Part shown: positions 41,068 through 58,747 of the stretch, in pieces
Numbering within the stretch: the stretch's first letter is position 1
Layout of the letters: the number at the start of each line of letters is the position of its first letter
Assembly (NCBI GenBank): GCA_965214705.1
Contig: OZ243972.1
Coordinates: 3,168,001 to 3,232,000 of the forward strand
Direction: 5' to 3'
From: Alphaproteobacteria bacterium
GTDB taxonomy: Bacteria; Pseudomonadota; Alphaproteobacteria; UBA828
Length of the DNA stretch: 64,000 bases
The notes under the pieces: generated by a model
What the model was told of the DNA's origin: nothing
The model's database searches: none
What the model saw: only the letters and a program-made list of their open reading frames with translations
Made by a program: the position numbers and the translations under genes

Positions 41068-41078
41068 GGAGTACGGAC

Positions 41079-42095: not shown

Positions 42096-42253
42096 CACGC
42101 CATTATTCGCTCACGGCAGCCGGCCGTCGCGCGAGTCAGCGCGCCTATGGGCGCGACGACCGGCGCCTCCGCGAGGGCGCCGCATAAGCGGCGGGCCGCG
42201 GTCGCGGCCTGTCGCGAACCCGTCGAAGACGGGTTCGCTCCCGCCCTACGCCC

Positions 42254-42943
42254 TCACCACGGGATGATCGTGCGCTCGGGCGCGTGCCAGAAGGCGGGCT
42301 GAGCGCCGGGCTCGGCAGGCTCGACCTGATCGATGCGCTCGATCAGGGCGGCGGCGGCGTCCTCCGGCGGGCGTGCTTCCTGGCGTTCGTCGTCGAAGGT
42401 CATGGCGGTCGCGACCATGCCGGGGTGCAGGACCACCGCGGCGATGCCGCGCTTCCCAAGATCGTGGGCGAGGTTGACCGCCACCATATTGGCCGCGCAC
42501 TTGGAGACGCGATAGCCGTAGAGCCCGCCCGAGCGGTTGTCGCCGAGCGAGCCGATGCGGCTGGTGATGAAGGCGACCGTCGACCCCGGCTTCAGCCGAC
42601 CCAGCAGGGCCTCCGTCACACGGAGCGGACCCAGCGTGTTGACCTCGAACTGCCGGCGGATGGCGTCGTAGTCGAGCGCGCCCAACTCGTCGCGCGCGGC
42701 AATCCCGGCGTTGTTGATGAGCAGATCGAGCGTCGTGCTGGAGTCCGCGAGCCGCTCGGCAAGGCCTTGCACCGCATCGTCGGAGGTCACGTCCACGCCG
42801 GGCTCGACCCTGATGCCGAGCGCCCGCAGCTCGTCGGAATCGCCCAGACAGGCCGCGATGACGGCGTCGCCGCGTGCGTGACAGGCGCGGCAGAGCGCGT
42901 TGCCGATGCCGCGATCGGCGCCCGTGACCAGAACGGTGCTCAC
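42254..42943 (-). CDS. SDR oxidoreductase (C-signal/CsgA-like)
   Basis: TGADRGIG, NNAG, YRVSK, LHPG. Confidence 0.88.
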   Translation of the reverse strand: MSTVLVTGADRGIGNALCRACHARGDAVIAACLGDSDELRALGIRVEPGVDVTSDDAVQGLAERLADSSTTLDLLINNAGIAARDELGALDYDAIRRQFEVNTLGPLRVTEALLGRLKPGSTVAFITSRIGSLGDNRSGGLYGYRVSKCAANMVAVNLAHDLGKRGIAAVVLHPGMVATAMTFDDERQEARPPEDAAAALIERIDQVEPAEPGAQPAFWHAPERTIIPW

Positions 42944-42973
42944 GGCACAGCCTGCCGCCCCGGCCTGCGTCGT

Positions 42974-44989
42974 TCAGGCGACCCGGAGCGTCGGCTGCTC
43001 ATTGCGCGCCTGCCCCGGCACCTCCCAGTGGGCCGCGGTGCGGCGGCGCAGCATGTCGCGGAACTGCCGGGTGGTGTTGGGTAGAAGCTCGCCCGTGCCC
43101 CAGTCCACGATCACGCCGTACTGGCGAATCAGGTCGAGCGCGTCGAGCTCCTTGCTGCGGTACTTGGCTGCGATGTCCTCCGCATCCACGTCGAGCCAGG
43201 CGTGGCGCTGGGTGCGGATGCGCTCGCGCTCAGCCGCGGTCGCTGCTTCATCCACCTCGTATTCGGCGAGGTCGGCATCGATCTCGCGGACCACGACGCC
43301 ATAGTCCTTCTTCGCCCGCTCGATGGAGACGTAGCCGTCGGCCACGTCCTCGCACACCGTTGCGGGATCGCGCGTGAGGGGGTCGCCGAGCCCGCCGCCG
43401 CCGGCCGACGGCCGGGTCACGGTGTCGCCGGCCTCCACCGGCACGCCCGAGAAGATCGAGCCCAGGTAGCGTTCGCCCTGCGTGCCGGGATTGACCCAGA
43501 CCCCGTGCGGAATCGACGGCAGCCCGCCCCAGAGCCCCCAGGTCACCGAGCGCTCGCGGTCGCAGCAGTAAGAGACCACCGAGCGCTCCGCCTTGGTGAG
43601 GATCGCGCCCTTCTCGACGCCGAGGCCGCCGCGCGAGTTGCCGGGCCCGCCGGAATCGACGATGAGCTCGTGGCCGGTGGTCAGCACCGGGGCGAGCCGC
43701 TCCTGCCCCTCGAAGGGCTGGGTGCCGAGCTGGACGCCGAAGACCGGCCCGGTGGCGCCCCAGCCGTCGCGGCCGTTGCGCGCGCCCCAGCCGCCCACCA
43801 TCCAGTCGTACCACATGAAGTAGGGGCGGTCCTCCTTGCGGCCGTCGCGCCCGCCGATCAGCAGGTACTCGAGGTTGAAGGTGCAGGCCATGGCGCGCTC
43901 GGGCAGGATTTCGGCCCAGAGCTCGAACACCGAGTTCATGATCTTCTCGAACGGGCCCGAGCAGAAGCCCGCGACAGGCGTCGGCCAGTCCGCGTTGACC
44001 ACGGTGCCCTTGGGTCCGAGATCGACCGTGACCACCCGGTAGAAGCCGGAGTTCAGCGGGATGTCGGGCGATTGCATCTTGGTGCCGGCGACGATGGCCG
44101 CGAAGGCGCCGCCGTAGCAGCAGTTGAGGAAGGTCGAGATCGTCTTCGGGTGCGAGCCGGAGAGATCGTAGTGCACGCTGTCGCCGTCGATGGTCATCTT
44201 GATGCGGATCGGGATCAGCCCCTCGCCGGCGACCGGGTCCACGTCGATGTAGTCCTCGGTCTCCCACACGCCGTCGGGCAGCCTGGCGATGCGCTGGCGA
44301 GTCAGCGTCTCCACGTAATCCTGCACCTCGGCGAAGGAGGTCTGGATCACGTCGACGCCGTACTTGTCGCAGAGCCGGCCGACCTCCCGCTCCGCGACGT
44401 TGCAGGCCTCGGCCTGGGCCTGGAGGTCGCCGATGATGTCGGCGGGCGCGCGGGTGTTGTTGGCGATCAGCTCCGCCACGTCCGAGAGGTACTCGCCCTT
44501 GCTGTAGACCCGTACCGGCGTGATGCGGAGCCCCTCGGCCATGTGGTCGAGCGCGCTCACGTTGAACGAGCCCGGCACCGCGCCGCCGACATCGGCCCAG
44601 TGCCCGTTGGCCTGGGAGAAGCCGAGGTGGATGCCCTTGTAGAAAATGGGGCGGACGATGCGCGTGTCGTTGAAGTGGGTGCCGCCCTGGTAGACGTCGT
44701 TCACGACGAAGGTATCGCCGGGGTGGATGTCGTCGCCGAACTTGTTGATGACGGCCTGGGCGGTGTAGTGCAGCGTGCCCACGTGGGCGGCGATGTCGCC
44801 CGAGCCCTGCATGATGGTGTTGCCTTCGGTGTCGCAGATCGCCGAGGAAAAATCCCGCGACCAGATCACGAAGGAGTAGCAGGTGCGGAAAATCTGCTCC
44901 GCCATCTGGTCGACGATGTTGACGTAGGCGTTCTTGAGCACCTCGAAGGTCACGGGGTCGAGCGTGTAGCCTTCTCCGTTCTTGCTCAT
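42974..44989 (-). CDS. Hydantoinase B / oxoprolinase / carboxylase-family subunit
   Basis: LDPVTFEV, GGTHFND, HWADVGG, GGGGLGDP. Confidence 0.92.
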   Translation of the reverse strand: MSKNGEGYTLDPVTFEVLKNAYVNIVDQMAEQIFRTCYSFVIWSRDFSSAICDTEGNTIMQGSGDIAAHVGTLHYTAQAVINKFGDDIHPGDTFVVNDVYQGGTHFNDTRIVRPIFYKGIHLGFSQANGHWADVGGAVPGSFNVSALDHMAEGLRITPVRVYSKGEYLSDVAELIANNTRAPADIIGDLQAQAEACNVAEREVGRLCDKYGVDVIQTSFAEVQDYVETLTRQRIARLPDGVWETEDYIDVDPVAGEGLIPIRIKMTIDGDSVHYDLSGSHPKTISTFLNCCYGGAFAAIVAGTKMQSPDIPLNSGFYRVVTVDLGPKGTVVNADWPTPVAGFCSGPFEKIMNSVFELWAEILPERAMACTFNLEYLLIGGRDGRKEDRPYFMWYDWMVGGWGARNGRDGWGATGPVFGVQLGTQPFEGQERLAPVLTTGHELIVDSGGPGNSRGGLGVEKGAILTKAERSVVSYCCDRERSVTWGLWGGLPSIPHGVWVNPGTQGERYLGSIFSGVPVEAGDTVTRPSAGGGGLGDPLTRDPATVCEDVADGYVSIERAKKDYGVVVREIDADLAEYEVDEAATAAERERIRTQRHAWLDVDAEDIAAKYRSKELDALDLIRQYGVIVDWGTGELLPNTTRQFRDMLRRRTAAHWEVPGQARNEQPTLRVA

Positions 44990-45011
44990 TGTCTCTTCCT
45001 CGCTCTCTGCA

Positions 45012-47066
45012 TCAGCCTTCGGCCTGCGGAATGTGCATGACGATGGTGTGCCAGGGGTCGACCTCGGCCTTGAGGCCGGGCGGCACCAGCACCGTGGAAT
45101 CGAGCTGCTCGATGATCGCCGGCCCTTCGACCACCGCGCCGGCGTGCAGGGCGTCGCGGTCGTAGATGGGCGTCATGATCGCGTCAGGCGCCTCGTCGAA
45201 GACCACCGGCCGCTCGGTCTCGGGCGCCGGCGCCGAGCGGTCCATCTCTTCCCTCGCGAACTCCGCCTTCTGCGAAAGCCCGGTGGCGGTGACCGTGAGG
45301 CGGTAGATCTCGACCGGCGCATCGGGCCTGGAATAGTTGTGCTCGCGGCCGTGCTCCTCGTGGAACTGGGCGATCGCCGCATCCAGCGAGCCGGCAGTCG
45401 CGTCCACCTTGATCGACATGGAGCGCCACTGGCCGAGGTAGCGCATGTCGACGAAGCGCTCGAACTGCATGCGGTCCTCGGTCACGCCCTCGTGTAGGAG
45501 CCGCTCGCGGCCCTCGTCCTCCAGCGTGCTGAAGGTCTGCTCGACCTCCTCGATCTTCGCATCGTCGGTAGAGCGCAGATACATCTGCGACATGTCGTGC
45601 TTGATATCCACCAGCAGGCAGCCGAGCGCGGAGGTGACGCCGGGGTTCGGCGGTACCAGCACGGTCGGGATCGAAAGGTCGCGGGCGAGCGCCACGCCAT
45701 GCAGCGGCCCGGCGCCGCCGAACACTGTCAGCGCGAAGTCGCGCGGGTCGTAGCCCCGCCGGATCGAGACCAGGCGCACGGCGTCCGCCATGTTGGCGTT
45801 GGCCACCTGGAGTATGGAGACAGCCGCCTCCTGCACCGTGAGCCCGAGCGGGTCGGCGATGCGGCGCTTGATCGCCTCTTCGGCGAGCGAGCGGTCCAGG
45901 GTGACGGCGCCGCCCGCGAGCCTGTCGCTGATGCGGCCGAGGACGATGTTGGCGTCGGAGTTGGTGGGCTCCACGCCGCCCCGGCCGTAGCAGGCGGGAC
46001 CGGGCGACGAGCCTGCCGACTGCGGGCCGTTGCGGAGCGAGTTGGCCTCGTCGATCCAGGCGAGCGAGCCGCCGCCCGCGCCGATGGTCAGCACCTCGAT
46101 GCTAGGGAAGCAGATCGGGTAGCCGTACTGCACGTACCAGTCGGTGGTGACCCGCAGGTTGCCCCGGTCGCAGAGCGAGACGTCGGTGCTGGTGCCGCCC
46201 ATGTCCAGGCTGATCGAGTTCTCGTAGCCAGCGAGCTGGGCGACGAAGCGGCTCGCGATGGCGCCCGCCGCGATGCCAGAAGCGGCGAGCCGGGCCGCGA
46301 ACTTGGACGCCGTGCTCTCGGTCATCACGCCGCCACCGGAGTGCAGCAGCAGAATGTCCTCTTCGTAGCCGCCTTCGCGGAGCCGCGTGGCGAGGCGCCC
46401 CACGTAGTCGCCGGCGACCGGCGCGAGCACGGCGTTGGCCACCGTCGTCGAGAAGCGCTCGTGCTCGAAGATCTCGGGCATGATCTCGCTGGAGAGCGAG
46501 ATGGAGGCGCCGGGGACTTCCTCTTCGAGGATGTCGCGCATGCGGCGCTCGTTCTCGGGATTGGCGAAGGCGTTGGCGAAGCAGACGGCGATGGTCGTCA
46601 CGCCGCGCTTGTTGATGATGCGGGCGGCCTCCCGCGCCTCCGCCTCGTTCACCGGCTCGATGACCGCGCCGCTGTAGTCGATGCGCTCGCTGACCACCAG
46701 GCGGTTGCGGCGCTGGATGTAGGGCGGCGCCATCTCCTTATAGGTGTCCCACAGGTCGTCGCGGGTGCCTCGGCGGATCTCGATCACGTCGCGGAAGCCC
46801 TTGGTGGTGACCATGATCGCGGGCGGGAAGTTGCGCGTGATCAGCGCGTTGGTGGCGAGCGTGGTGCCGTGAGCGAAGAGCACCATGTCCTGGAGGTCCA
46901 CCCCGCCGGCCCTGATGCCCTCCAGCACGCCGTCGATGGGGTCGGGCGTCGTCGGGGTCTTGGCGACGCGCATCTGGCCGGACGCTTCGTCTAGGACGCA
47001 CACGTCGGTGAAGGTGCCGCCGACATCACACGCGACGCGAACGGCCGCCCTCGACACGTCATTCAT
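45012..47066 (-). CDS. Hydantoinase A / oxoprolinase family subunit
   Basis: DVGGTFTD, DMGGTSTD, GAGGGS, FGGAGPLH. Confidence 0.92.
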   Translation of the reverse strand: MNDVSRAAVRVACDVGGTFTDVCVLDEASGQMRVAKTPTTPDPIDGVLEGIRAGGVDLQDMVLFAHGTTLATNALITRNFPPAIMVTTKGFRDVIEIRRGTRDDLWDTYKEMAPPYIQRRNRLVVSERIDYSGAVIEPVNEAEAREAARIINKRGVTTIAVCFANAFANPENERRMRDILEEEVPGASISLSSEIMPEIFEHERFSTTVANAVLAPVAGDYVGRLATRLREGGYEEDILLLHSGGGVMTESTASKFAARLAASGIAAGAIASRFVAQLAGYENSISLDMGGTSTDVSLCDRGNLRVTTDWYVQYGYPICFPSIEVLTIGAGGGSLAWIDEANSLRNGPQSAGSSPGPACYGRGGVEPTNSDANIVLGRISDRLAGGAVTLDRSLAEEAIKRRIADPLGLTVQEAAVSILQVANANMADAVRLVSIRRGYDPRDFALTVFGGAGPLHGVALARDLSIPTVLVPPNPGVTSALGCLLVDIKHDMSQMYLRSTDDAKIEEVEQTFSTLEDEGRERLLHEGVTEDRMQFERFVDMRYLGQWRSMSIKVDATAGSLDAAIAQFHEEHGREHNYSRPDAPVEIYRLTVTATGLSQKAEFAREEMDRSAPAPETERPVVFDEAPDAIMTPIYDRDALHAGAVVEGPAIIEQLDSTVLVPPGLKAEVDPWHTIVMHIPQAEG

Positions 47067-47172
47067 TCCTAACGGTCCTCTCCCTTATGTCCCTGCAACC
47101 GACGGCTGCCGCCGCGCGCGGCGGCACAGCTTATTCGGAAGGCGCCCCGAGACCTAGGGTGAGAAAGGCGCC

Positions 47173-48051
47173 CTAACACTTGAGGATGGGGCGGGCGTTC
47201 TTGCCGGCGATGGCGGGGCGGAGCGCGCCCCACGCGTTGAACAGAGCCTCGTGAGCCTGCCAGGTTTCGTGGCTCAGGATGCGGACGATCACCAGGTTGC
47301 CGATGCGGGTGACGCCGGCCTCGGTGCCGTCCACGCCTTCGATCGCCTCGTGCACGTCGTCCTCGACATCCGGCGGCAGATCAGGCGCGTAGCCGAACGC
47401 CATTGCCATGTGCAGCCGGCCGAGCCAGAGCCGCTGCAGCGCGGCGATAGTCTCGGGCGTGGTCGCCACCAGGCGGTCGAGAGCGACCAGGCGGCCGCCG
47501 ATGACGATGCGGAACTCCGAGACCAGATGGTGGAAGCGAAAGACCTCGCCGTCGCCGTAGTGCACGCGGCCGGCCGAGACCATGTCGGTGGCGAAGAGCC
47601 GGGACGAGGGCTCCAGCGCGATCCGGTTGATCCGGTGCACCCGGCTGCGGGCGAAGGGGATCGCCTCGTCCGGGCAGAACTCCAGCAGCGCATTCTCGCC
47701 CACGTGGAGGTCCACGATCTCGCGCGAAATGGCGCCGCCGGGGCACTTGTAGAACTTGCTCGACGCGGTGGTGGTGAAGAGGGCGCGGGTGCCGGGCTCC
47801 AGCACGCCGTGGAAGTGCGAGACGTCGCCCTCGACGAAGCCGCCGCCGCTGTTCACCAGCAGCATGAACGGCTGGTCGTCGTGGTCCTGGTAGTGGTAGC
47901 CCTGCCACTGGAAGGGAATGCGCCAGCAGAGCGGGTCGATTTCCGTGCGCCCGAGCCTGCTCGACGCGCGGACGTTCATCAGCGCGTACTTACCGACGAT
48001 CCATTCGGGATCAGGCTGTACCGGCGCGCTGCTCGGCTCCGTCATGCCCAT
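47173..48051 (-). CDS. ureD: Urease accessory protein UreD
   Basis: [33 protein letters not shown]. Confidence 0.85.
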
Positions 48052-48655: not shown

Positions 48656-48730
48656 CCACAAGTCTCCCCGTTTTCCTGCGTCTAACGTCGCGTTTCCGAA
48701 ACGAAAGAGTAGAGTGCTCCCGTCCCCGTC

Positions 48731-48822
48731 TCGTCATGGCCGGGCTTGACCCGGCCATCCACTCGCGCATCCCGGTCTTGCTTGGACCGACTGGATGCCC
48801 GGATCAAGTCCGGGCATGACGA
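48731..48822. repeat. Alphaproteobacterial palindromic intergenic repeat (REP/REPIN-like)
   Basis: TCGTCATGGCCGGGCTTGACCCGGCCATCCA ... TGGATGCCCGGATCAAGTCCGGGCATGACGA. Confidence 0.8.
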
Positions 48823-48872
48823 CAGGAGGTCGATGGCACCCGTGCGCATTTTCAAGACACGACGCCAGACTA

Positions 48873-49571
48873 TCACGACATGCAGAGCCGCGTGTGCAGG
48901 CGCTCGTGGCGCATGCTGGCGACATCGAGGCCGGCGGTGGCGCTGCCGAGTGTGTCCAGCTCCATGGCGCAGGCGTTCTCGGTGCCCTGTGTCAGCAGCG
49001 GCCAGGCCTCCCTGACGATGCGCTGGCTCTCGATCTGGCCGAGCGGGATCAGCCGTGCCCCGACGCTGACGAGGTTGGAGAGCGCGGCGTGTAGGAAGGC
49101 GAGCACCGCGTCGTCGGAGCCGATCCCCTGCGCCTCCGCCGCCGCGCCGAAGATCACCGCCTGATGTCCCTCGCAGCGCCCGTCGCGCACCGCCTCCGCA
49201 AAGGGCGCGAGGGACTCCGCCGAGAAGACGTCGCGATAGGCGCCCAGCAGCGCGCGCCCGGTCTTGAACGAGGCCTCGCGCGCTTCCCGACTGAGCTTGA
49301 GCGCGCCCACGACGTGGTCGAGGTCCACCAGCCCGTCGAGATCGCCTGCGGCGGCGCGGCGATGGGCATGGGCGACCGCGGCGCCATCCGTCGGCACGGC
49401 GGCGTAGCCGAGCCAGTCCCGGCAGGCGCTCTCGAAGCTCGCGGCGTCGTCCAGCGCGCCCGAGTCGATCCAGGTCTCGAAGCCGTAGGAGTGGTTGAAC
49501 GCGCCGGTCGGGAACGAGGCGTTCGCAACTTGCAGCAGGTAGAGGAGCCGGTCGGGCGCGTCAGTGCTCAT
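48873..49571 (-). CDS. ureF: Urease accessory protein UreF
   Basis: FPTGAFNHSYGFE, RLIPLGQ, HERLHTRLCMS. Confidence 0.93.
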   Translation of the reverse strand: MSTDAPDRLLYLLQVANASFPTGAFNHSYGFETWIDSGALDDAASFESACRDWLGYAAVPTDGAAVAHAHRRAAAGDLDGLVDLDHVVGALKLSREAREASFKTGRALLGAYRDVFSAESLAPFAEAVRDGRCEGHQAVIFGAAAEAQGIGSDDAVLAFLHAALSNLVSVGARLIPLGQIESQRIVREAWPLLTQGTENACAMELDTLGSATAGLDVASMRHERLHTRLCMS

Positions 49572-50052
49572 GGTGATGGTCGTGGTGGCCGTGGTGATCG
49601 TGATGGTGGTGGGCGCCGTGAGCGCCGTAGCGGCGGCCGACGAAGGGGATGGTGCGCTCCTCGTAGGAGATGCCGAGACGCGTGAGCAGATCCGCCACCA
49701 TGGGATCGGCCGGGGTCAGCATCCCCTCGTCGGTGAAGCGGACCGGCCGGTGCAGGTTGCCGAGCTGATAGCCGGCGACGCCCCAGGTGTACGCGTCGTC
49801 CGGGCTGACGACGTAGAGCGCCTCCGGCGCGGCGCGCGCCACCACCGCCGTGGTGCCTTCCAGCGCGAGCACGTCGCCGTCGTTGATCTCGGTGCCGCGC
49901 GGGAGCGAGATGCGCACGTCGCGCCCCCCTTCGGAGCGTCCCACCAGATGGGCGCTGGCACGCTCCTCCGAGTTGAGCAGCACCGGGTCCTCGCTCTCGA
50001 ATCGGCTGCGCAGGGACTCGATCGTGCCGAGGACCTCGGTGACGACCGCCAT
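49561..50052 (-). CDS. ureE: Urease nickel chaperone UreE
   Basis: GYQLGNLH, His-rich C-terminus. Confidence 0.9.
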   Translation of the reverse strand: MAVVTEVLGTIESLRSRFESEDPVLLNSEERASAHLVGRSEGGRDVRISLPRGTEINDGDVLALEGTTAVVARAAPEALYVVSPDDAYTWGVAGYQLGNLHRPVRFTDEGMLTPADPMVADLLTRLGISYEERTIPFVGRRYGAHGAHHHHDHHGHHDHHHEH

Positions 50053-50076
50053 GCGTGCCGTCGCCTCCGCCGCCCC

Positions 50077-51783
50077 TTAGCGGAAGTAGAAGAGCTGGGT
50101 CAGCGGCAGGGTCTTCGCCGGCTTCACCGTGATGCGCTCGCCATCGACGTAGACGTTGTAGGTCTCCGGGTCGATCTCGATATCCGGCAGCGCGTCGTTG
50201 TGGATCATGTCGCGCTTGGAGATGGTGCGGCAGCGCTTCACCGGCACCAGCCTCTGGGTCTCGATCTGGTCCGCAAGCCCGTTGTCGAGCGCCGCCTTGG
50301 TGACGAAGGAGTAGCTCGTCCGCTTCGGGTTGACGCCGAGGGAGCCGTACTGCGGCCGGTACTTGAGCGGCTGGCCGGTCATCAGCGAGCCCGCCGGGTC
50401 GCCCATCACCGCGTGCGAGATGAAGCCGCCCTTCAGCGTCACCTCGGGCTTCGCGATGAAGAACTCGGGCCGCCAGAACACCAGGTCCGCGAGCTTGCCC
50501 GGCGTGATCGAGCCCACGTAGGAATCGACGCCGAAGCAGATCGACGGGTTGATCGTCACCTTGGCGAGGTAGCGCTTGATCCTGAAGTTGTCGTTGCCCG
50601 AGCCGTCCTCCGAGAGCCGTCCGAAGCGCACCTTGTTGACAGCCGCGAGTTGGAAGGAGCGCTGCGCGCTCTCTGCCGCGCGGCCCACGCCCTGGCTGTC
50701 GGAGCCGATCATGCTGATCGCGCCCATGTCGTGCAGCACGTCCTCGGCCCGCATGGTCTCCGCGCGAGCGCGGCCCTGAATGAAGGCGATGTCCGTCGGC
50801 ACGCTCTTGTTCAGGTTGTGGCAGGTGATCAACATGTCGATCTCTTCGTCGTACGTGTTGATCGAGAACGGGTTGGTCGGGTTGGTCGAGCTCGGAAGCA
50901 GGTTGGGCTCGCCGCAGACCCGCATCATGTCCGGCGCGTTGCCGCCGCCCGCGCCCTCGCAGTGGTAGATGTGCATGACGCGGCCGTTGATGGCCGCGAT
51001 GGTGTCCTCGTAGTAGCCGGTCTCGTTGAGCGTGTCGGCGTGAATCTGGACCTGAAAGTCGTACTCGTCCGCAAGCTCCATGGTGGTCTCGATGGCGGCG
51101 GGCGAGGACGACCAGTCCTCGTGGATCTTGAGCCCCGTGGCGCCGGCCAGGATCTGCTCCACCAGAGAGCCCGGCGTCGCCGCGTTGCCCTTGCCGAAGT
51201 TGCCGAAGTTGAGCGGGATGTCCGCCATCGCCTCCAGCATCCGCTGGATGTTGAAGACGCCGGGACACTCGATGCCCACCGTCTTCGGCCCCGAGCCGCC
51301 GCCGATCACCGTGGTGAAGCCCGCGTTCTGGTACTCGTAGAGCTGCTGCACGGAATCGAAGTGGGGGTGGATGTCTACGAAGCCCGGCGTGCAGATCATG
51401 CCCTCGACCGAGAGGATGTCGGTGTTGGGCGAGACGATCAGCCCCGGCGTGATGTTCATGGTGTCCGGGTTGCCGGACTTGCCGACGCCGACGATCTCGC
51501 CGTCCAGCACGCCGATGTCGCCCTTCACGACGCCGAGGATCGGATCGATGATCACGGCGTTGGTGATCACCATGTCGAGCCCGCCGTCGCTCTGCTTCCA
51601 CTTCGACGCCTGGCCCATGCCGTCGCGGATGGTCTTGCCGCCGCCGAAGACGAGCTCGTCGCCGTAGGTGGTGTAGTCGTGCTCGATCTCGGCCACGAGG
51701 CCGGTGTCGGCGAGGTGAATCTTGTCCCCGGTGGTCGGCCCGTACTGCGCGGCGTAGTCCGGGCGGGCGATCTTCATGCTCAT
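50077..51783 (-). CDS. ureC: Urease alpha subunit, divergent active-site pocket
   Basis: YGPTTGD, DIHPH, GLKIHEDW, HADTLNE, HCEGAGGG, CH, SDSQ. Confidence 0.93.
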   Translation of the reverse strand: MSMKIARPDYAAQYGPTTGDKIHLADTGLVAEIEHDYTTYGDELVFGGGKTIRDGMGQASKWKQSDGGLDMVITNAVIIDPILGVVKGDIGVLDGEIVGVGKSGNPDTMNITPGLIVSPNTDILSVEGMICTPGFVDIHPHFDSVQQLYEYQNAGFTTVIGGGSGPKTVGIECPGVFNIQRMLEAMADIPLNFGNFGKGNAATPGSLVEQILAGATGLKIHEDWSSSPAAIETTMELADEYDFQVQIHADTLNETGYYEDTIAAINGRVMHIYHCEGAGGGNAPDMMRVCGEPNLLPSSTNPTNPFSINTYDEEIDMLITCHNLNKSVPTDIAFIQGRARAETMRAEDVLHDMGAISMIGSDSQGVGRAAESAQRSFQLAAVNKVRFGRLSEDGSGNDNFRIKRYLAKVTINPSICFGVDSYVGSITPGKLADLVFWRPEFFIAKPEVTLKGGFISHAVMGDPAGSLMTGQPLKYRPQYGSLGVNPKRTSYSFVTKAALDNGLADQIETQRLVPVKRCRTISKRDMIHNDALPDIEIDPETYNVYVDGERITVKPAKTLPLTQLFYFR

Positions 51784-51806
51784 GCTCTGGCTCCCTGCTC
51801 CTGCCC

Positions 51807-52313
51807 TCAGTCGCCGTCCTTGCCGCCGAACTTCTCGTCGGGCGGGGTCTGGACCGGATAGCGCTCGCCCTCGAAGCAGTAGCCCTCGGCCCTGAGGCGG
51901 CGCATGGTCTGCTCCTTGATGATGCCGGAGCGGACCGAGCCGTTGGTCATGTTGTTCATGCCGTAGGCGACCTGGCGGCCGACGTAGCCGGTGATCTGCA
52001 CCTTGCGGCTCTGGCCGGGCTCGAAGCGCACGGCGCTGCCGGAAGGCACGTCGAGGCGCATGCCGAACGCCGCCTCGCGATCGAAGGCCATCGCCCTGTT
52101 GCACTCGGCGAGGTGATAGTGGGCGCCGATCTGGATCGGCCGGTCGCCGGTGTTGACCATGACGATCTCGATCGCGGGGCGATCCGCATTGATCTCGATG
52201 TCGCCCTCGGCGAAGTCGATGGCGCCGCACTTCTCCGGCTCGCCCACCTCGAACGCCTCGTCCGGCACGATCGATTCCGGCAGCGGCGGCGGGCTCCATT
52301 TTCTCTTAGCCAT
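51807..52313 (-). CDS. ureB: Urease beta subunit with N-terminal extension
   Basis: NTGDRPIQIGAHYH, G.RLDVPSG.AVRFEPG. Confidence 0.93.
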   Translation of the reverse strand: MAKRKWSPPPLPESIVPDEAFEVGEPEKCGAIDFAEGDIEINADRPAIEIVMVNTGDRPIQIGAHYHLAECNRAMAFDREAAFGMRLDVPSGSAVRFEPGQSRKVQITGYVGRQVAYGMNNMTNGSVRSGIIKEQTMRRLRAEGYCFEGERYPVQTPPDEKFGGKDGD

Positions 52314-52338
52314 GGCTGTTCTCCACGCTTGGCCCGCG

Positions 52339-52650
52339 CTACTCGCGGATCGGGTTCATCACCGTGACGAGCTTGGTCCCGTCCGGGAACATGGCCTCGA
52401 CCTGGACGATCTTCATCATCTCGGGCACGCCCGTCATCACGTCCTCGCGCTTCAGGATGGTGGCGCCGTACTCCATCATGTCTGTCAGCATGGGGATGCT
52501 GCCCTCGCGTGCGCGCTCTAGAATCTCGTCGCAGATCAGCGCAATCGCCTCGGGGTAGTTCAGCTTGACGCCGCGATCGAGGCGCCGCCGGGCCATCTCC
52601 GCCGCGGCCCAAATCTGTATCCGTTCTTCTTCACGTACAGTGAGATGCAT
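52339..52650 (-). CDS. ureA: Urease gamma subunit
   Basis: MHLT.RE, KLNYPEA, QVEAMFPDGTKLVTV. Confidence 0.95.
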   Translation of the reverse strand: MHLTVREEERIQIWAAAEMARRRLDRGVKLNYPEAIALICDEILERAREGSIPMLTDMMEYGATILKREDVMTGVPEMMKIVQVEAMFPDGTKLVTVMNPIRE

Positions 52651-52985
52651 GAGCCCCCGCTCCCTCTAACGCGCGACATCCGCATAATTTGAGCGACGAC
52701 ACGATTCCATGTGACCGGCGCCCCTAAGAAAAGTCCCCGAAAGGATATACCCGAACGAGTAGTATGTCCCGAGCGGCTGGAGTGGCACAGCCGTCAGGCT
52801 CATCTATTGTTCGTGCCTTCCCCCTGATTGACACAACGTTGCTCCCGACCCCACGTCCGGCCGACCTTGCGCCTGTTGGATGCGCGTGCCGAAGGCGGTA
52901 GGCTTGATCCAAAATACTCCATGATGTTGACCTGCGGGTCCGAGCAGTCGCAGGACGCCGCCGAGCGCGGCAGGGAGGGCTGGCC

Positions 52986-53741
52986 GTGGACAGCCAGATG
53001 GAGTGGTTTTCGGGAGAGCTGGACAAGGCAAGCTCCTTCGATCAGGCGCTGGACATCCTCGCCCAAATTACCGCCGACATGGGTTACACGCAGGTCCTCT
53101 ACGCCTATCAGCGAACAGCGCGTCTCGCGGACGGCGAGTGGGTTCCACTCAAGCTCAACGTCCGTAACTTTCCTGCAGGCTGGGAGCGTCAGTGGGAGGC
53201 CTTCGGCTCTCACGATCCGTACTACCGGGCATGCTTCGAGACGACCCTGCCCTTCGATTGGCACGACGTTCAACGACGCGAACATCTTCACCCGGCCCAG
53301 GCAAAAGCATGGCGCTATCTCGCGGACCTCGGGCTCGGTCGCGGTATGACCATACCTGTCCATCTTCCCTGGGGGCGGTTCGCGGTGGTCAGCGCCATCG
53401 TCGACCGGTCGACGAGCAATTGGTCGCACATCAAGGATGCGACGCGGGATCCCATGTTTCACCTCACCCACCTCTTTCACGACACCGTGCGACGCAATGG
53501 ATTCGAGGATCAGGTGCAGGTCGCGTCATGCGTCCGACTCAGTCCGCGAGAAACGGAATGCCTGCAATGGGCGGCGGCGGGCAAGACCTCACCCGAGATA
53601 GCCCGGATCATCGACCGATCGGTCGAAACCGTGCGCCTCCACCTCAAGAACGCCTTCCACAAGCTTGGTGCGAACAACAAGGGACATGCGATTGGCAAGG
53701 CCGTGCAACTCGGATTGGTCGAGCCGATCGACCGGCATTGA
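52986..53741 (+). CDS. LuxR solo (autoinducer-binding domain plus HTH)
   Basis: NFPAGW...HDP, FDW, GMTIPVH; LSPRETECL.W.AAGKTS.EIA; no luxI in the window. Confidence 0.92.
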   Translation: MDSQMEWFSGELDKASSFDQALDILAQITADMGYTQVLYAYQRTARLADGEWVPLKLNVRNFPAGWERQWEAFGSHDPYYRACFETTLPFDWHDVQRREHLHPAQAKAWRYLADLGLGRGMTIPVHLPWGRFAVVSAIVDRSTSNWSHIKDATRDPMFHLTHLFHDTVRRNGFEDQVQVASCVRLSPRETECLQWAAAGKTSPEIARIIDRSVETVRLHLKNAFHKLGANNKGHAIGKAVQLGLVEPIDRH

Positions 53742-53890
53742 CTACCCAATTATGTTAACCTGTTTATGGAGCCTCGTTCGGGGAGTGTCCGTCGACTAGA
53801 TTATTCCCTAGCCTGCCAACTCGATGGCCGTGCCAGGCCGGCTGACGGAGCAGGCTGGGCGGTTGTAACCGGAAATCAGGGAGGTGGTCG

Positions 53891-55198
53891 ATGCGGCGCA
53901 AACTCACATTAGGGAAGGCCGTTGGCGCGGCCCTTGCAGCGATAGGCATGGTGGCGCTGGCCGGTCTGGCGAACAATTCGGCGCAGGCCGCGACGGACGA
54001 GGAGATCATCCTTTGCACGATCGATGATCTTTCCGGCGATTTCTCGATCATGGCGACACCCAAGACCTACGGCTATCAGCTGGCGGTCAAGGAGGTGAAC
54101 GAGGCTGGCGGCATCATGGTGGATGGCGCCCAGAAGATGATCAAGCTGATCACCTACGATGGGCAGTCCCAGGTCAAACGCTATCAGGAGCTTGCACAAA
54201 AGTGCATTTTCGACGACGAGGCCGATGTCGTCATGGCAGCGTACACGGGCGCCGAGCGTGAGGCGGCCCGCCGCGAAGTGGTCCGCAACGAGGTCATCTA
54301 CTGGCATAACAATCAGGGCGAGGGCGGGATTGCCGACAGGTACTCGTTCTTCTCCGGCCCCACGCCTGAGCAGCAGGTCCTGCCGGCGCTCAAGTGGATG
54401 ATCGAGAATTACGGCACGCGGATGATTTACATCGGTGCTGACTACAACTTCTGCCGGGCGATCGGTATGTGGACCCGAACGGCCGCCAATCTCTATGGCG
54501 GAACCATCGAGTATGAGGAGTACTTCCCGTTCGGTGTCTCGCAATGGCAGGCGACGATCGACAGAATTCAGAAGGTCGCGCCGGACTTCCAGGTCCATTG
54601 TCTCGTCGGTGCCGAGCATGTGCAGTTCTATCCGCAGGCGCAGTCGGCAGGCCTGTCGACGCCGACATGGTCAAACGTGACTATCGCGGACGGCTACGAG
54701 CACAAGCGTTTCGCGCCGCCCTCGCTGGCGAACATGCATGTCTCGCCGGGCTACATCGAGGATGTGCCCCACGAGAACAGCGTGGAGTTCGTCCGCAAGC
54801 TGCGCGAAATGTTCCCAGACATGCTGTACGCAAACGAGCACGCGGGCTTCGGTTATGTGGCGGTGAAGGCAATGGCTAACGCCTGGGCCAAGGCCGGCAC
54901 GACGGACACCGACGCGGTGATCGACGCCTTGCAGTCGGATATCGAGGTACCGGAGGCGCCGGGGGGTCCGTGGAAGCTCCATGGCGACCAGCATCACGGC
55001 GCCATGCATTCATACCTGTTCAAGGTGAACGACGATCACAGCCTGACGCTGATCGCTGACCTCGGTTACACCGAGCCAACATTCCTCAGCGACATCGGCG
55101 TGAACATGCGTGAGAAGGCGCCGGGTCGTCAGTATCTGCCGCCGGACAATCCGGCATGGGCGCCCTTCTTCGAGGGTCAGGAACGCGTCGGGCAGTGA
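53891..55198 (+). CDS. Urea/short-chain amide ABC substrate-binding protein (UrtA/AmiC-like)
   Basis: Signal peptide, DLSG, EVNEAGG, QGEGG, PEQQ, GADYNF. Confidence 0.8.
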   Translation: MRRKLTLGKAVGAALAAIGMVALAGLANNSAQAATDEEIILCTIDDLSGDFSIMATPKTYGYQLAVKEVNEAGGIMVDGAQKMIKLITYDGQSQVKRYQELAQKCIFDDEADVVMAAYTGAEREAARREVVRNEVIYWHNNQGEGGIADRYSFFSGPTPEQQVLPALKWMIENYGTRMIYIGADYNFCRAIGMWTRTAANLYGGTIEYEEYFPFGVSQWQATIDRIQKVAPDFQVHCLVGAEHVQFYPQAQSAGLSTPTWSNVTIADGYEHKRFAPPSLANMHVSPGYIEDVPHENSVEFVRKLREMFPDMLYANEHAGFGYVAVKAMANAWAKAGTTDTDAVIDALQSDIEVPEAPGGPWKLHGDQHHGAMHSYLFKVNDDHSLTLIADLGYTEPTFLSDIGVNMREKAPGRQYLPPDNPAWAPFFEGQERVGQ

Positions 55199-55293
55199 AT
55201 TGCCCCGGCGCTGGCGGCCGGCATAATGCCGGCCGCCCCGCCCTGCCCCGCGGCGGGGCGCCGGCACGTAGCAGCGGGAGCGGATAGGGCGCC

Positions 55294-56205
55294 ATGGATG
55301 TCGCGGCCGACGTCTTCAGCTACGCCTATCAGTATTTCGACAATATCGGATTTCTGATTCTCTCGGCGTCCGGCCTCATCATCATTTTCGGGATGATGGG
55401 CGTCATCAACATGGCTCATGGCGAGTTGATGATGATCGGCGCCTACATAACGGCGTTCTCCTATCATGCCGGTGTTCCAGCCCCCTTGGCCATCATCTTC
55501 GCTGGCATCGGTGCCGGCCTAGCCGGCATGGTTCTGGAGCGCCTGGTCATCCGGCACTTTTACAAGCAGCTCCTCTCGTCGCTGGTGGTGACATGGGGGC
55601 TGAGCCTGATGATCAGCCAAGGATTCCTGCTGATATTCGGGCCGACGATACTTAACGTGCCGACTCCGTTCGGCAACTTTCCAGTGGCAGAGCAGACCTT
55701 CGGGATCTATCGGCTTGTCCTGTTCGGTGGTGCACTGGCCATCGTCGCCGGAGTCTGGGCCGTGTTCACCTTCACCAAGTTCGGCACTCACGCCCGGGCC
55801 ACGATGGAAGACCCGGACATGGCCGACGCGCTGGGCGTGAACACGCGCAACATCTACGTCCTCACTTTCGGCATTGGTGCCGCCATGGGCGGCGTCGCAG
55901 GCGGCATGTTCGCGCTGACGGCGACGATTTCGCCGTTCTTCGGCATCAACTACACGCCGCTCGCATTCATCACCGTCGTGGTCGGCGGTGGTGCCAACGT
56001 CATCACCGGGCTGCTGTCGAGCGTGATGGCGCTCGCCGGCGTACAGACCGCAGTCAACAACTTGGTCAATGTCTATGTCGGCTACATTGCCATGATGGGC
56101 GCGGCTTTCTTCATCCTGCTCCTGCTCCCCAGGGGAATTTCGGAGTATCTCGAGCGCCGCAAGATACGGACGGAGCGGAAGGTGAGCCGCAGTGCGCCAG
56201 CATAG
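55294..56205 (+). CDS. Urea/amide ABC permease (UrtB-like)
   Basis: FGMMGVINMAHGELMMIGAY. Confidence 0.88.
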   Translation: MDVAADVFSYAYQYFDNIGFLILSASGLIIIFGMMGVINMAHGELMMIGAYITAFSYHAGVPAPLAIIFAGIGAGLAGMVLERLVIRHFYKQLLSSLVVTWGLSLMISQGFLLIFGPTILNVPTPFGNFPVAEQTFGIYRLVLFGGALAIVAGVWAVFTFTKFGTHARATMEDPDMADALGVNTRNIYVLTFGIGAAMGGVAGGMFALTATISPFFGINYTPLAFITVVVGGGANVITGLLSSVMALAGVQTAVNNLVNVYVGYIAMMGAAFFILLLLPRGISEYLERRKIRTERKVSRSAPA

Positions 56206-57292
56206 CGTTTTGGACCGCTACCTCGGCCCGCTGAACGGTCCTCACACGATGGGCCGCGGAGTCGCCTTCTGGGTCGGTTTCGTGGTCGTGGTTGCCGTGC
56301 TCGCGAGCTTTCCCGAGTACATGCGCCGCTACGATATTATAAATCTCAGCAACTTCCTGATTTCGGGCTTCCTCGCCCTTAGCCTCGGCCTGATCTGGGG
56401 TTATTGCGGCGTTCTCAGCCTTGGCCAGGCCGCGTTCCACGGAATCGGCGGCTATGCCTACGGTATCGTTGCGCTCAATCTCTTCAACGCGCACGGCAAT
56501 ACCGACATCGCGTTCTTCGCCGGTATTGTGGTCCCCGTTGTCTTTGCCGCAATCATTGGCGGGATCATGTTCTTCGCGCGATTGCGCGGCGTCTATATCG
56601 CGATCTTGATGCTCGTGGTCTCGCTGCTGATCGGCACGTTCATGCGTCAGACTGCCGATCCGAGCTACACAATCGGTGCGGCCTATTTGGGAGGAATGAA
56701 CGGACTCAGGCCCGCCTCCGTCGACGACCCGTTGCTCCCCAGCCTAATTTTTGGCCTCGGCGAGACGGTGATCGAGTTGGACGGCCGCCGCCCTGCCTTC
56801 TTCTACTTCGTTCTGGGGCTGCTGGTGGCAGTCTATCTGGGCCTCCGCTGCTTGGTGAACTCCAGCTACGGCTACTTGTTGATCGGCTGCCGGGAAGATC
56901 CTAACAGGACGGAGACTTTCGGTTACGATGTGCGTCTGATCCAGCTCGGCGTCTTCTGCATTGCTGCCGCGATCGCGGGGCTCTCGGGAGTGCTCTACAC
57001 GGCGTGGGGAACCTACATTCATCCGGACGGTTTCGGCGTCGCGCCCAACATTCTTGTCGTCATCTGGGTCGCGGTCGGCGGCCGCAAGGATCTCGGCGCC
57101 GCGATCGCGGGTGCGATCGTGCTCGAATGGGTATCGCTCAGACTTGCGGCCGAAGGCGAAATTGCGTTCCTTGTGCTGGGCGCCATTCTAGTCGGCGTTA
57201 TGCTGATCGCGCCGAACGGCCTCGGCATCACTATCGGCGACTACATCCGGCGAGGCCACGATCGGGCGATCGACTGGGTGCGTGCGCGGTGA
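56192..57292 (+). CDS. Urea/amide ABC permease (UrtC-like)
   Basis: LIWGYCGVLSLGQ, IWVAVGGR. Confidence 0.88.
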   Translation: MRQHSVLDRYLGPLNGPHTMGRGVAFWVGFVVVVAVLASFPEYMRRYDIINLSNFLISGFLALSLGLIWGYCGVLSLGQAAFHGIGGYAYGIVALNLFNAHGNTDIAFFAGIVVPVVFAAIIGGIMFFARLRGVYIAILMLVVSLLIGTFMRQTADPSYTIGAAYLGGMNGLRPASVDDPLLPSLIFGLGETVIELDGRRPAFFYFVLGLLVAVYLGLRCLVNSSYGYLLIGCREDPNRTETFGYDVRLIQLGVFCIAAAIAGLSGVLYTAWGTYIHPDGFGVAPNILVVIWVAVGGRKDLGAAIAGAIVLEWVSLRLAAEGEIAFLVLGAILVGVMLIAPNGLGITIGDYIRRGHDRAIDWVRAR

Positions 57293-58032
57293 GCGCGCTA
57301 GCCGAAAGGAGCGCCGCCACGGGCGTCATCGTGGAGACCCGGTCGCTAAGCAAGATATTCGGCGGCGTGCGGGCCGTGGATGGGCTCGATCTCTCCATCC
57401 AGGAGGGCGAAATCCATTGCATCATCGGTCCTAACGGCGCCGGCAAGAGCACCTTGTTCAAGCTCCTCATGGGGATCGAGCGGCCGACGGCAGGCGCGAT
57501 CGTTCTCGACGATCACGACATCACGCACATGGCGCCGCACCTTCGTGCGCGTCGCGGATTGGCCATCAAGTTCCAGTCAATGCAGGTCTATCAGGACCTC
57601 ACCGTCTATCAGAACCTCTTCATTCCTCTGCGCCGCCACCATCGGCCGCGCGAGATCCCCGATCGCTGTGCCGACTTGCTTACCCAGCTACAGCTTACGG
57701 ACACCGAAGAGCGGATCGTAGGCGATCTCTCGCACGGGCAGCAGCAGTGGCTTGCCATCGGCATGTCGATGGCGGTGGATCCCAAGGTGCTGCTCCTCGA
57801 CGAGCCGACCGCTGGCATGTCGCCAGAGGAGACGCGGCAGACTGCGGCAATCGTGCGTCAGCTCAACGAGGCGGGCGTGACAATCGCCGTGATCGAGCAC
57901 GACATGGCGTTCGTGCGCGACCTCGATACGCGAACGACGGTATTGCACTACGGCAAGGTGTTTGCTCAGGGCGCGTTCGCAGACATCGAGCGGGACGACG
58001 ACGTGCACCGCATCTATCTCGGGAAGATCTGA
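57289..58032 (+). CDS. ABC ATPase (UrtD-like)
   Basis: GPNGAGKS, LSHGQQQWL, LDEPTAGM. Confidence 0.9.
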   Translation: MSALAERSAATGVIVETRSLSKIFGGVRAVDGLDLSIQEGEIHCIIGPNGAGKSTLFKLLMGIERPTAGAIVLDDHDITHMAPHLRARRGLAIKFQSMQVYQDLTVYQNLFIPLRRHHRPREIPDRCADLLTQLQLTDTEERIVGDLSHGQQQWLAIGMSMAVDPKVLLLDEPTAGMSPEETRQTAAIVRQLNEAGVTIAVIEHDMAFVRDLDTRTTVLHYGKVFAQGAFADIERDDDVHRIYLGKI

Positions 58033-58045
58033 GGAGCCCGGCGCG

Positions 58046-58747
58046 ATGCTCCTCGATGTCAGTGGCCTGACCTCCGGTTACGGCAAGGTGCGCATCGTCA
58101 ACGACGTCTCGCTCAGTGTGGAGGAGCAGGAGATCGTCGCAGTGATCGGCCGCAATGGTGTCGGCAAGACCACGCTGATGAAAACTCTGGTCGGGCTGAT
58201 CCGGGGACTTGCCGGCACTGTTGAGTTTCGCAGCCAGGATGTGACTCGGATGCGCGCTGCCGAACGGGCGCAGCTAGGTATCGGCTACGTGCCGCAGGGG
58301 CGTGGCATCTTCGCCCGCCTGTCAGTCGCCGACAATTTGCGGATGGGTGAGCAGATCGGTGGCAGGGGCAAGGCGCCTGATTATGACCGCGTGCACGAGT
58401 ACTTTCCGATCCTGAAGGAGCGTCAGGCGCAGAAGGCAGGCTCACTCAGCGGCGGAGAGCAGCAGCAACTCGCGATAGGTCGCGTCCTCGTGGGCCATCC
58501 CGAACTCGTGTTGCTGGACGAGCCCTCGGAGGGGATCCAGCCCAACATCGTTCAGTCGATCGGCGAGATCATCAAGCGGCTGCGGACCGAAGTTGGATTG
58601 ACCTTCGTAATCGTGGAGCAAAACCTTGATCTCATAAATGCTGTGGCCGACCGTTGCCTGGTTATCGACAAGGGTTCGATTATCGCACGCCTGGACCCCG
58701 CGGAGCTGGCGGACCCAGAGATCGCCCGCAAATACCTAGCAATCTAA
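58046..58747 (+). CDS. ABC ATPase (UrtE-like)
   Basis: GRNGVGKT, LSGGEQQQL, LDEPSEGIQP. Confidence 0.9.
   Translation: MLLDVSGLTSGYGKVRIVNDVSLSVEEQEIVAVIGRNGVGKTTLMKTLVGLIRGLAGTVEFRSQDVTRMRAAERAQLGIGYVPQGRGIFARLSVADNLRMGEQIGGRGKAPDYDRVHEYFPILKERQAQKAGSLSGGEQQQLAIGRVLVGHPELVLLDEPSEGIQPNIVQSIGEIIKRLRTEVGLTFVIVEQNLDLINAVADRCLVIDKGSIIARLDPAELADPEIARKYLAI

Follow-up and report, generated by a model that had tools for sequence, protein, structure and literature searches.

The stretch of DNA analysed here, referred to as the window, comprises 64,000 nucleotides of contig OZ243972.1 (GenBank assembly GCA_965214705.1, an alphaproteobacterium of the UBA828 lineage). The gene in question is ureC, encoding the alpha subunit of a urease, which lies on the minus strand among the other urease subunit genes and the maturation genes. 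For ureF and ureD, assignment relied on gene order, on conservation among related loci and on comparison with the two further urease loci of the same genome, L086 and L087. The features are as follows (aa, amino acids; scores in bits):

52339..52650, minus strand: ureA, gamma subunit (103 aa); TIGR00193 at 135 bits (cut-off 82.3), NF009712 at 140 bits (cut-off 123)
51807..52313, minus strand: ureB, beta subunit (168 aa); TIGR00192 at 126 bits (cut-off 90.3), PF00699
50077..51783, minus strand: ureC, alpha subunit (568 aa); TIGR01792 match and residue states, with clade-specific H280N, H312E and M364V and a block of flap positions
49561..50052, minus strand: ureE, nickel chaperone with a His-rich C-terminus; below-cut-off matches to several UreE NCBIfam models (1e-21 to 1e-5)
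48873..49571, minus strand: ureF (232 aa); by position, conserved in 66 of 69 loci, 31% identical to the PF01730 UreF of L086
48011..48661, minus strand: ureG, GTPase for nickel insertion; TIGR00101 at 334 bits (cut-off 204)
47173..48051, minus strand: ureD (292 aa); by position, conserved in 64 of 69 loci, 26% identical to the PF01774 UreD of L087

The locus contains a complete nickel urease gene set of a distinct and horizontally spread lineage, with a predicted enzymatic activity. Neither UreF nor UreD of the window matched an NCBIfam model. UreB carries N- and C-terminal extensions around its Pfam core (residues 30-125), and the median UreB open reading frame (ORF) in 65 related loci measured 170 aa. 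The accessory set ureEFGD was complete in all 48 well-flanked loci, that is, loci with at least 8 kb of sequence on both sides.

Window UreC passed the curated urease alpha equivalog TIGR01792 with 748.8 bits against a cut-off of 680. Its top matches among solved structures were urease catalytic subunits (33 distinct sequences with E up to 1e-10). The best were those of Yersinia enterocolitica (4z42 and 6yl3, E 1e-188), closely followed by H. pylori, S. pasteurii, jack bean and K. aerogenes, and identity to the solved ureases was about 55%. When the ureC genes of 11 genomes were scored with TIGR01792, those of the window type (the variant) formed the lowest band at 734-755 bits, and the others scored 806-1029 bits.

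Residue numbers of K. aerogenes urease (KAU) were taken from the review PMC7433671. The offset between window UreC and KAU was +5 before the loop around A167 and +2 after it. This shift equals a three-residue deletion in the loop, and the HMMER alignments to 4z42 and 8hc1 contained the same gaps. The shortened loop, GGGSGPKTVGIECPG, starts at residue 161 and has Gly in the A167 column. Within DIHPHFDS, H139 and H141 correspond to KAU H134 and H136; LKIHEDW supplies K219, H221 and D223 (KAU K217, H219 and D221); H248 of QIHADTLNE is KAU H246; and IYHCEGAGGGNAPD contains H274 (H272), G279 (G277) and N282 (H280). In DEEIDMLITCHNL, E314 stands for H312 and C321/H322/N323 for C319/H320/H321. R338 of IQGRARAET is KAU R336, and GSDSQGVGR provides D362 (D360), G365 (A363) and V366 (M364). 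Thus the six ligands of the binuclear nickel site (H134, H136, the Lys K217 that is carbamylated in ureases, H246, H272 and D360) are kept in window UreC, as they are in 40 of 40 non-redundant members of its clade. Also kept in window UreC are H219, E220, D221, G277, C319, H320 and R336, and its changes relative to KAU are H280N, H312E, H321N, A363G, M364V and the short loop. The original prediction, made from the sequence without database searches, had claimed intact ligands (HxH, K217, H246, H272, D360) together with H219, C319, H320 and R336, and all of them were found at the aligned positions. The changed strings that it quoted (the three-residue loop deletion, GGGNAPD, SDSQGVGR and an altered flap) were likewise all present in the ORF.

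Judged by its listed residues, the pocket itself has changed less than that prediction supposed. According to PMC7433671, the urea pocket of KAU consists of A167, H219, E220, D221, G277, C319, H320, R336, A363 and M364. Seven of these ten residues are identical in window UreC, and the remaining three are A167G, A363G and M364V. Among 34 other non-redundant ureases, however, Gly occupies the A167 column in 14 and the A363 column in 13, and both other ureC genes of the window genome carry the short loop together with G363. The loop deletion and A363G were therefore rejected as the key novelty, since ordinary ureases in large number have them too. On these alignments, M364V is the only clade-specific change among the ten pocket residues, and the description of a "rebuilt substrate pocket" was too strong.

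Changes near the catalytic His have parallels as well. E312 was present in 33 of the 40 non-redundant clade members, and the K. aerogenes variants H312A and H321A have been reported to be near wild-type. The solved urease of Yersinia enterocolitica reads CHN in its flap, and HMMER places Leu in its H312 column and Phe in its L313 column. According to PMC2806259, acid-optimum ureases have Asn one residue after (+1) and Phe seven residues before (-7) the catalytic His; unlike this pattern, window UreC has Ile at -7. By alignment, both H321N and a change in the H312 column have precedent in true ureases. The Yersinia enzyme (acid-optimum, low-Km) thus resembles window UreC in its CHN flap, but it differs in its long loop and in keeping GGGHAPD and SDSQAMGR.

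The extent of the variant was then defined. Among the best 120 clusters listed by a protein search, 95 were 68-100% identical to window UreC, followed by a step down to 25 at 61-62%. The variant motifs ran throughout the former group, whereas the latter had the short loop but canonical H280, H312, H321 and M364. Relatives of UreC were retrieved from 249 stretches (one genome per species), and 76 of the 79 loci kept were of the variant type, so the variant occurs in at least 76 species genomes. Its range covers Alpha-, Beta- and Gammaproteobacteria, Actinomycetota and Chloroflexota, as well as ocean and soil metagenomes. Named hosts include Hansschlegelia, Methylopila, Hyphomicrobium, Mesorhizobium, Chelatococcus, Camelimonas, Pseudaminobacter, Roseovarius, Planktomarina, Aquabacterium, Burkholderiaceae, Mycobacterium, Thermoleophilia and a Dehalococcoidales metagenome-assembled genome (MAG). 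This spread across phyla points to horizontal transfer of the variant urease.

For the UreC phylogeny, 265 sequences were reduced to 80 at 88% identity and then to 71 rows by leaving out nine fragmentary ones (P0133, P0135, P0141, P0146, P0152, P0155, P0157, P0245 and P0249). The tree was built by maximum likelihood under LG+G4 in a quick search, with SH-aLRT as the only support measure. This check, which had been proposed with the original prediction, placed the variant in a distinct clade, supported at 100%, whose stem measures 0.38 changes per site. The 61-62% group was its sister, and both nested among short-loop ureases. In the basal members P0088, P0090, P0092 and P0047, the flap has already changed while H280 and M364 are still kept. 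Clustering at 50% identity put the clade inside the general urease cluster. The sister group (P0098 type) was also sought in 400 genomes of the window's phylum, and none was found above 65% identity.

Pairwise ratios of nonsynonymous to synonymous substitution rates (dN/dS) between window UreC and three distant members were 0.12-0.17, which indicates purifying selection. As the same states recur in 40 non-redundant members under such constraint, they are not the product of chance or sequencing error. Across all tested ureC pairs dN/dS was 0.06-0.19, and pseudogene decay was rejected on this basis.

Positions that separate the clade from other ureases were then counted. A fixed difference was defined as a position conserved in at least 85% of the 34 other ureases and differing in at least 70% of the 40 clade members, with the clade residue in at most 5% of the others. 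Of 207 conserved positions, 18 qualified (KAU 146, 223, 247, 267, 268, 280, 305, 312, 313, 317, 333, 334, 335, 337, 342, 343, 364 and 441). Some sub-branches carry additional changes. In the 40 clade members, D221 is replaced by Asn in 4, H320 by Phe or Gln in 4 and C319 by Val or Ala in 8. One sub-branch reads ..ITVHNL (C319V), and another reads DEANDIIITVFNL together with HENW (C319V, H320F and D221N; P0069, P0071-P0074, P0079, P0094 and locus L108). L108 carries ureA, ureB, ureC and ureF, and both C319V-type sub-branches keep accessory genes as far as their short contigs reach. On these short contigs, the flanks of sub-branches without C319 or H320 held unrelated neighbours and no importer or regulator.

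The window genome contains three ureC genes, of which only that of the window operon is accompanied by all accessory genes. Its two counterparts lie on contig C2 of this genome (G000) in truncated loci with fused gamma and beta subunits. L086 reads ureF-ureAB-ureC-amidohydrolase, with ureF as its sole accessory gene and with IS91 transposase and integrase genes nearby, and L087 reads ureAB-ureC-ureD, with ureD as its sole accessory gene. Both UreC proteins keep GGGHAPD and SDSQGMGR; one flap is canonical (DEHLDM..CHHL) and the other reads DEQLDM..CHLL. These fused second ureases (NF009671 type) share with the window enzyme the short loop, A363G, the same half of the tree and co-occurrence with other ureases. 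They differ in their fused subunits, in keeping H280, M364 and a canonical flap, and, in the window genome, in their incomplete accessory sets. A second ureG was found at G000:C3:204440-205027. Among 10 other host genomes, the variant was the only ureC in two, namely a complete Rhodobacteraceae genome (G006) and a Thermoleophilia MAG (G008); in these two, no canonical UrtA and no urea carboxylase scored over its cut-off.

With three ureC genes in one genome, and with catalytic residues missing from some sub-branches of the clade, the window gene might be a redundant or non-catalytic copy that is drifting or serves a non-enzymatic role. The dN/dS values of 0.06-0.19 in all tested pairs argue against this, as do the motifs that are invariant across phyla, the accessory gene set that is always retained and the catalytic residues that are all intact in window UreC. 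We consider such a copy highly improbable.

Divergently from the urease genes, beyond a regulator gene described below, the window encodes an importer of the ATP-binding cassette (ABC) type:

53891..55198, plus strand: periplasmic binding protein (amide/urea family, UrtA/FmdD/AmiC) whose ligand site is altered; TIGR03669 at 340 bits, TIGR03407 at 156 bits
55294..56205, plus strand: ABC permease (UrtB-like); TIGR03622 at 253 bits, below the cut-off of 374
56192..57292, plus strand: ABC permease (UrtC-like); TIGR03727 at 328 bits, below the cut-off of 576
57004..58032, plus strand: ABC ATPase (UrtD-like), listed ORF of 342 aa; TIGR03411 at 237 bits, below the cut-off of 304
57962..58747, plus strand: ABC ATPase (UrtE-like); TIGR03410 at 267 bits, below the cut-off of 286

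The family match of the UrtD-like ATPase begins at residue 109, so its true start is probably near 57320. All five genes (53891-58747) had urea-transporter models as their best matches, and all stayed below the curated cut-offs. For the binding protein, the score on the canonical UrtA model TIGR03407 was far short of the cut-off of 492.75, and that on TIGR03669 was also short of its cut-off of 494.8. Across the whole window genome, binding-protein scores stayed short of the cut-offs of both urea models.

The ligand site of the binding protein was compared with that of UrtA. In Prochlorococcus UrtA, as described in PMC10392092, nine residues surround urea and eight of them are strictly conserved (W120, S122, Y141, Q144, E146, Y190, N246 and S274); mutation of S122, Q144, Y190, N246 or W120 abolished or strongly reduced urea binding. 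The canonical UrtA proteins that adjoin ordinary ureases in five loci kept all eight. In all 38 non-redundant variant-linked binding proteins, the corresponding columns instead hold Y, G, H, Q, E, Y, V and T without exception. The W-x-S, Y-x-x-Q-x-E and Y-x-F blocks align unambiguously; at 22-30% identity, the alignment at N246 and S274 is less secure. The window protein thus has the same fold family as cyanobacterial UrtA (E 1e-31 to 1e-28 to solved chains) and keeps the equivalents of Q144, E146, Y190 and F192, but differs by W120Y, S122G, Y141H, N246V and S274T.

A search of 301 genomes yielded six true members of TIGR03669 (574-626 bits) in 6 genomes, with F, S, Y, Q, (Y145), E, Y and V at the site. 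The three of their loci that were examined (alphaproteobacterial and related) were all amide operons, and the name of this model, "urea ABC transporter substrate-binding protein", may be misleading for bacteria. Such FmdD-like uptake systems have the same binding-protein family and ABC parts as the window importer; they are linked to formamidase, whereas the window importer is linked to urease. Within these three loci (L194, L195 and L196, from genomes G300, G154 and G272), an ANTAR gene lies beside the binding-protein gene and no urease gene adjoins. L194 and L195 further contain an AmiC-like gene, FmdA/AmdA and a CN-hydrolase, and L196 has an amidase further downstream.

A 46%-identical paralog of the binding protein in the window genome adjoins an amidase. 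PMC10781810 describes how short-chain amides as well as urea are taken up by the M. methylotrophus member of the family. Together with the amide-operon relatives, these observations suggest an importer of the amide/urea kind whose site would be opened by two or three smaller residues. In two loci, L078 (19056-20318) and L120 (16638-17900), a further binding protein (46% identical) and a permease of its own are encoded downstream of ureD, which gives the variant urease an importer on either side.

The association of importer and urease is wide but incomplete. Among well-flanked loci whose UreC is less than 95% identical to that of the window, the binding protein was present in 30 of 35 and the LuxR-family regulator gene in 24 of 35. 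Among the close kin of the window, importer and LuxR gene occurred together in only 1 of 12 loci; in six kin loci a FAD monooxygenase gene directly adjoins ureA in place of the cassette, and five kin genomes searched in full contained no binding protein above 52% identity. The importer-regulator cassette is therefore typical of the clade but dispensable. Comparison with L009, L010, L011, L013, L014 and L051, whose genomes have UreC 97-100% identical, showed a clean insertion or deletion polymorphism: between the FAD monooxygenase gene and ureA, some genomes have the 5.9-kb luxR and ABC-importer cassette (window 52986-58747) and others lack it.

The regulator gene and a candidate operator lie between importer and urease:

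52986..53741, plus strand: LuxR-family regulator (251 aa), divergent from ureA; PF03472 at 82.5 bits, PF00196 at 53.6 bits
52747..52762, no strand assigned: imperfect palindrome CTACTCGTTCGGGTAT (minus-strand reading), conserved block in luxR-ureA spacers, 97-112 nt upstream of ureA
52735-52744, no strand assigned: second short palindrome, following CTACTCGTTCGGGTAT

The autoinducer-binding and GerE domains of the regulator both exceeded their Pfam cut-offs. In an alignment to LasR and RhlR, the hallmark Trp, Asp, Pro and Trp residues were kept and one Tyr was replaced by Phe; in LasR numbering we take the former to be W60, D73, P74 and W88 and the latter to be Y56. No synthase gene was found beside the regulator gene or among the recurrent neighbours of related loci, where no search was aimed at synthases. 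When 16 luxR-ureA spacers were aligned, a single conserved block emerged, CTACCC-N4-GGGTAG, followed by the second short palindrome. With up to two mismatches allowed, 24 of 68 loci had this motif in the 350 nt upstream of ureA, compared with 84 matches (double-counted) elsewhere in the 1.2 Mb of those loci, and the site at 52747-52762 was its only match in the window. From this conservation, the palindrome is probably the operator of the LuxR-type regulator. A scan of 42000-54000 yielded no promoter-like and three terminator-like sites, no more than in shuffled sequences.

Overall, compared with canonical ureases (Klebsiella aerogenes UreABC and Sporosarcina pasteurii; 1ejw and 4ceu), the window system has the same three subunits, accessory genes, nickel ligands and H219/D221/C319/H320/R336. 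Its loop around A167 is three residues shorter, as in many other ureases, and the changes particular to its clade are H280N, H312E, M364V and those at ten positions of the flap. In place of UrtABCDE, the window has a LuxR-type regulator together with an importer of the amide family.

A urea-splitting isozyme with different gating and control is the single most likely reading of this system, and we give it about an even chance. Because all ligands and catalytic residues are in place, the standard urease mechanism would be expected. UreABC would be matured by its own UreE, UreF, UreG and UreD; the substrate would bind with its carbonyl oxygen on Ni1 and one NH2 on Ni2, the bridging hydroxide would attack it, and His320 on the mobile flap would protonate the leaving distal nitrogen. 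The remodelled flap would alter gating or kinetics. The enzyme would be removed from general nitrogen control and be governed by a LuxR-type ligand-binding activator, probably at the palindrome upstream of ureA, and a private ABC importer of the amide/urea family would supply the substrate. Plain urea is favoured by the intact catalytic set, the nearly intact first shell and the similar flap changes in real ureases. An importer family able to carry urea and the two genomes with the variant as their sole ureC point in the same direction.

Several observations nevertheless weigh against the urea-splitting isozyme. The divergence of the clade is centred on the flap and was then frozen: 10 of 26 conserved positions have changed within the flap (KAU 305-343) versus 8 of 181 elsewhere (Fisher p=3.9e-6), and the clade stem is the longest inner branch of the urease tree. 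These figures support the view that the divergence around the active-site lid is directed, as judged from the alignment. H280 is invariant in 34 of 34 other non-redundant ureases and is Asn in 32 of 40 clade members; M364 is equally invariant in the others (34 of 34), and the clade has Val in 35 of 40 and Cys in 1 of 40. According to PMC7433671, the G280 and A366 carbonyls in S. pasteurii numbering (KAU 277 and 363) hold the distal nitrogen of urea, and a distal nitrogen points to the flap His. Changes at 280, at 364 and in the flap would thus encircle the place of a substituent on that nitrogen. Several clade changes also lead to smaller residues (T247A, S335G, I337A, M364V and H280N).

Other points against the isozyme come from outside the active site. 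The linked binding protein keeps 3 of the 8 strictly conserved urea-site residues, and it departs from the true TIGR03669 members, its amide-operon relatives, by S122G, Y141H and Y145G. The predicted regulator is of a ligand-binding type. Ordinary ureases coexist with the variant: 8 of the 10 other host genomes carry one to three further ureC genes in the 806-1029-bit band, the window genome also has higher-scoring further copies, and in genome G001 an ordinary ureC lies about 8 kb from a canonical UrtA (562 bits), so that ordinary and variant systems stand side by side, each with its own importer. Cultured isolates with all urease types exist too, among them Hansschlegelia, Methylopila and Chelatococcus. 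Finally, L108 and two relatives gave a dN/dS of 0.08, which indicates that genes of the sub-branch without C319, H320 and D221 are maintained. H320 is the general acid (PMC7433671), and a urease without it should be very poor on urea.

These points lead to a second reading, a shift of substrate, to which we assign a tentative probability somewhat short of even. The enzyme would be a nickel amidohydrolase for a small urea-like compound, e.g. an N-substituted urea such as methylurea, which would yield carbamate and an amine, or else a short amide. From the distal nitrogen, the substituent would extend toward the remodelled flap and the M364V/H280N side of the cavity, the altered binding protein would import the compound, and the LuxR solo would sense it. 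Its support lies in the focus of the fixed changes on the flap, in the trend to smaller residues and in the position of H280N and M364V beside G277 and A363, whose carbonyls hold the distal nitrogen. The binding-protein site is invariant (38 of 38) and has lost urea-contacting or packing side chains, the nearest curated family sits in amidase operons in all three loci, the clade coexists with ordinary urease and UrtA systems, and sub-branches without H320 or D221 are still under selection. Many named hosts also belong to genera of methylotrophs, such as Hyphomicrobium, Methylopila, Hansschlegelia and that of Pontibaca methylaminivorans.

Against a shift of substrate, the urease family is not known to include any member that acts physiologically on a compound besides urea. 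The first-shell contacts are made mostly by backbone atoms and are kept, M364V is conservative, and basal clade members retain H280 and M364. Of 12 close-kin loci, 11 lack the importer-regulator cassette, and in five of these genomes no binding protein exceeds 52% identity. Two genomes have the variant urease only, and no gene of the conserved module identifies a candidate substrate. Of the proposal in the original prediction, a nickel enzyme for a substituted urea, a carbamate or an N-carbamoyl compound, what stands is thus a full nickel-urease-family protein with a diverged lid and with its own importer and regulator; the shift itself is plausible rather than proven. Among the substrates that it proposed, bulky N-carbamoyl amino acids rank as least likely.

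Urease is the founding nickel enzyme and has been treated as a one-substrate family, and genome and metagenome surveys count every ureC as capacity for urea use. The clade is set apart by a rebuilt active-site lid, a linked importer that has lost urea-site residues and a LuxR solo as its probable regulator rather than nitrogen control. It may, though we hold this with rather less than even confidence, be the first nickel-urease branch with a non-urea physiological substrate (a small N-substituted urea or a related amide), a co-evolved binding protein and a LuxR-solo sensor, running parallel to ordinary urea systems in bacteria of soil and sea, many of them from methylotroph genera; the sub-branches that replaced His320 and Asp221 would then have moved further still. 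A different substrate would mean a new reaction class for urease chemistry, a natural route for substituted ureas and corrected gene counts for the nitrogen cycle. If the enzyme is still a urease, the clade would offer a natural experiment on how flap residues tune gating, and a case of control by a LuxR-type receptor that may sense a signal. Searches of the open full-text literature (subscription journals not covered) gave no paper about this clade, none about a LuxR-controlled urease and none about a urease-family enzyme that acts on substituted ureas, nor any experimental report on a clade member.

Downstream of ureD, three further genes lie on the same strand:

45012-47066, minus strand: hyuA-like gene (684 aa); PF01968/PF05378/PF19278
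42974-44989, minus strand: hyuB-like gene (671 aa; exceeds the caprolactamase beta model by about 100 aa); PF02538
42254-42943, minus strand: IsoH-like short-chain dehydrogenase/reductase (SDR) gene, following the hyuB-like gene; the operon tail spans 42254..47066

The gap after ureD is 106 nt long and holds no terminator-like site. Both HyuAB proteins have complete Pfam domains but match no named equivalog: on the caprolactamase alpha and beta models they reached 533 and 336 bits, where the cut-offs are 1000. The same trio follows ureD in five kin loci (L008, L012, L014, L016 and L051), and a different hyuA paralog (40% identity) lies about 1.7-2 kb downstream of ureD in L007 and L009. A hyuA gene was near the variant ureC in 4 of 12 close-kin loci, versus 1 of 35 other well-flanked loci. 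HyuAB was therefore rejected as a conserved partner, and the hyuAB-SDR genes represent a lineage-specific addition rather than part of the conserved module.

Within the species group of the window, this arrangement admits a ureide pathway, in which HyuAB would open a cyclic ureide (e.g. hydantoin) to an N-carbamoyl compound that the urease-like enzyme would decarbamoylate, with the FAD monooxygenase, the SDR and an Opp-type importer in the same route. The shared strand, the gap after ureD with no terminator-like site and the recurrence in the kin loci are consistent with it, as is the FAD monooxygenase gene divergent from ureA in six of them. However, the near absence of hyuA outside the kin speaks against this pathway, an N-carbamoyl amino acid far exceeds in size the urea pocket, which is nearly unchanged, and HyuAB scored far below the curated cut-offs of every named member. 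We regard it as quite improbable.

Further genes were noted at both ends of the region. Converging on the SDR gene, a soluble di-iron monooxygenase set occupies 38952-42068 on the plus strand, consisting of an alpha subunit (38952-40472) that has a YHS domain at its C-terminus, a coupling protein of the MmoB/DmpM kind (40774-41067) and, at about 41046-42068, a beta subunit. Upstream of this set are an ABC ATPase and an NMT1-type binding protein (36056-38882). At the other end, the plus strand of 58875-64000 encodes the FAD monooxygenase (NF005566 at 438 bits, over its cut-off), followed by an Opp/Nik-type ABC importer with its binding protein at 60318-61985 and permeases from 62092. These permeases recur in 9 related loci, and the importer may thus serve nickel or substrate uptake.

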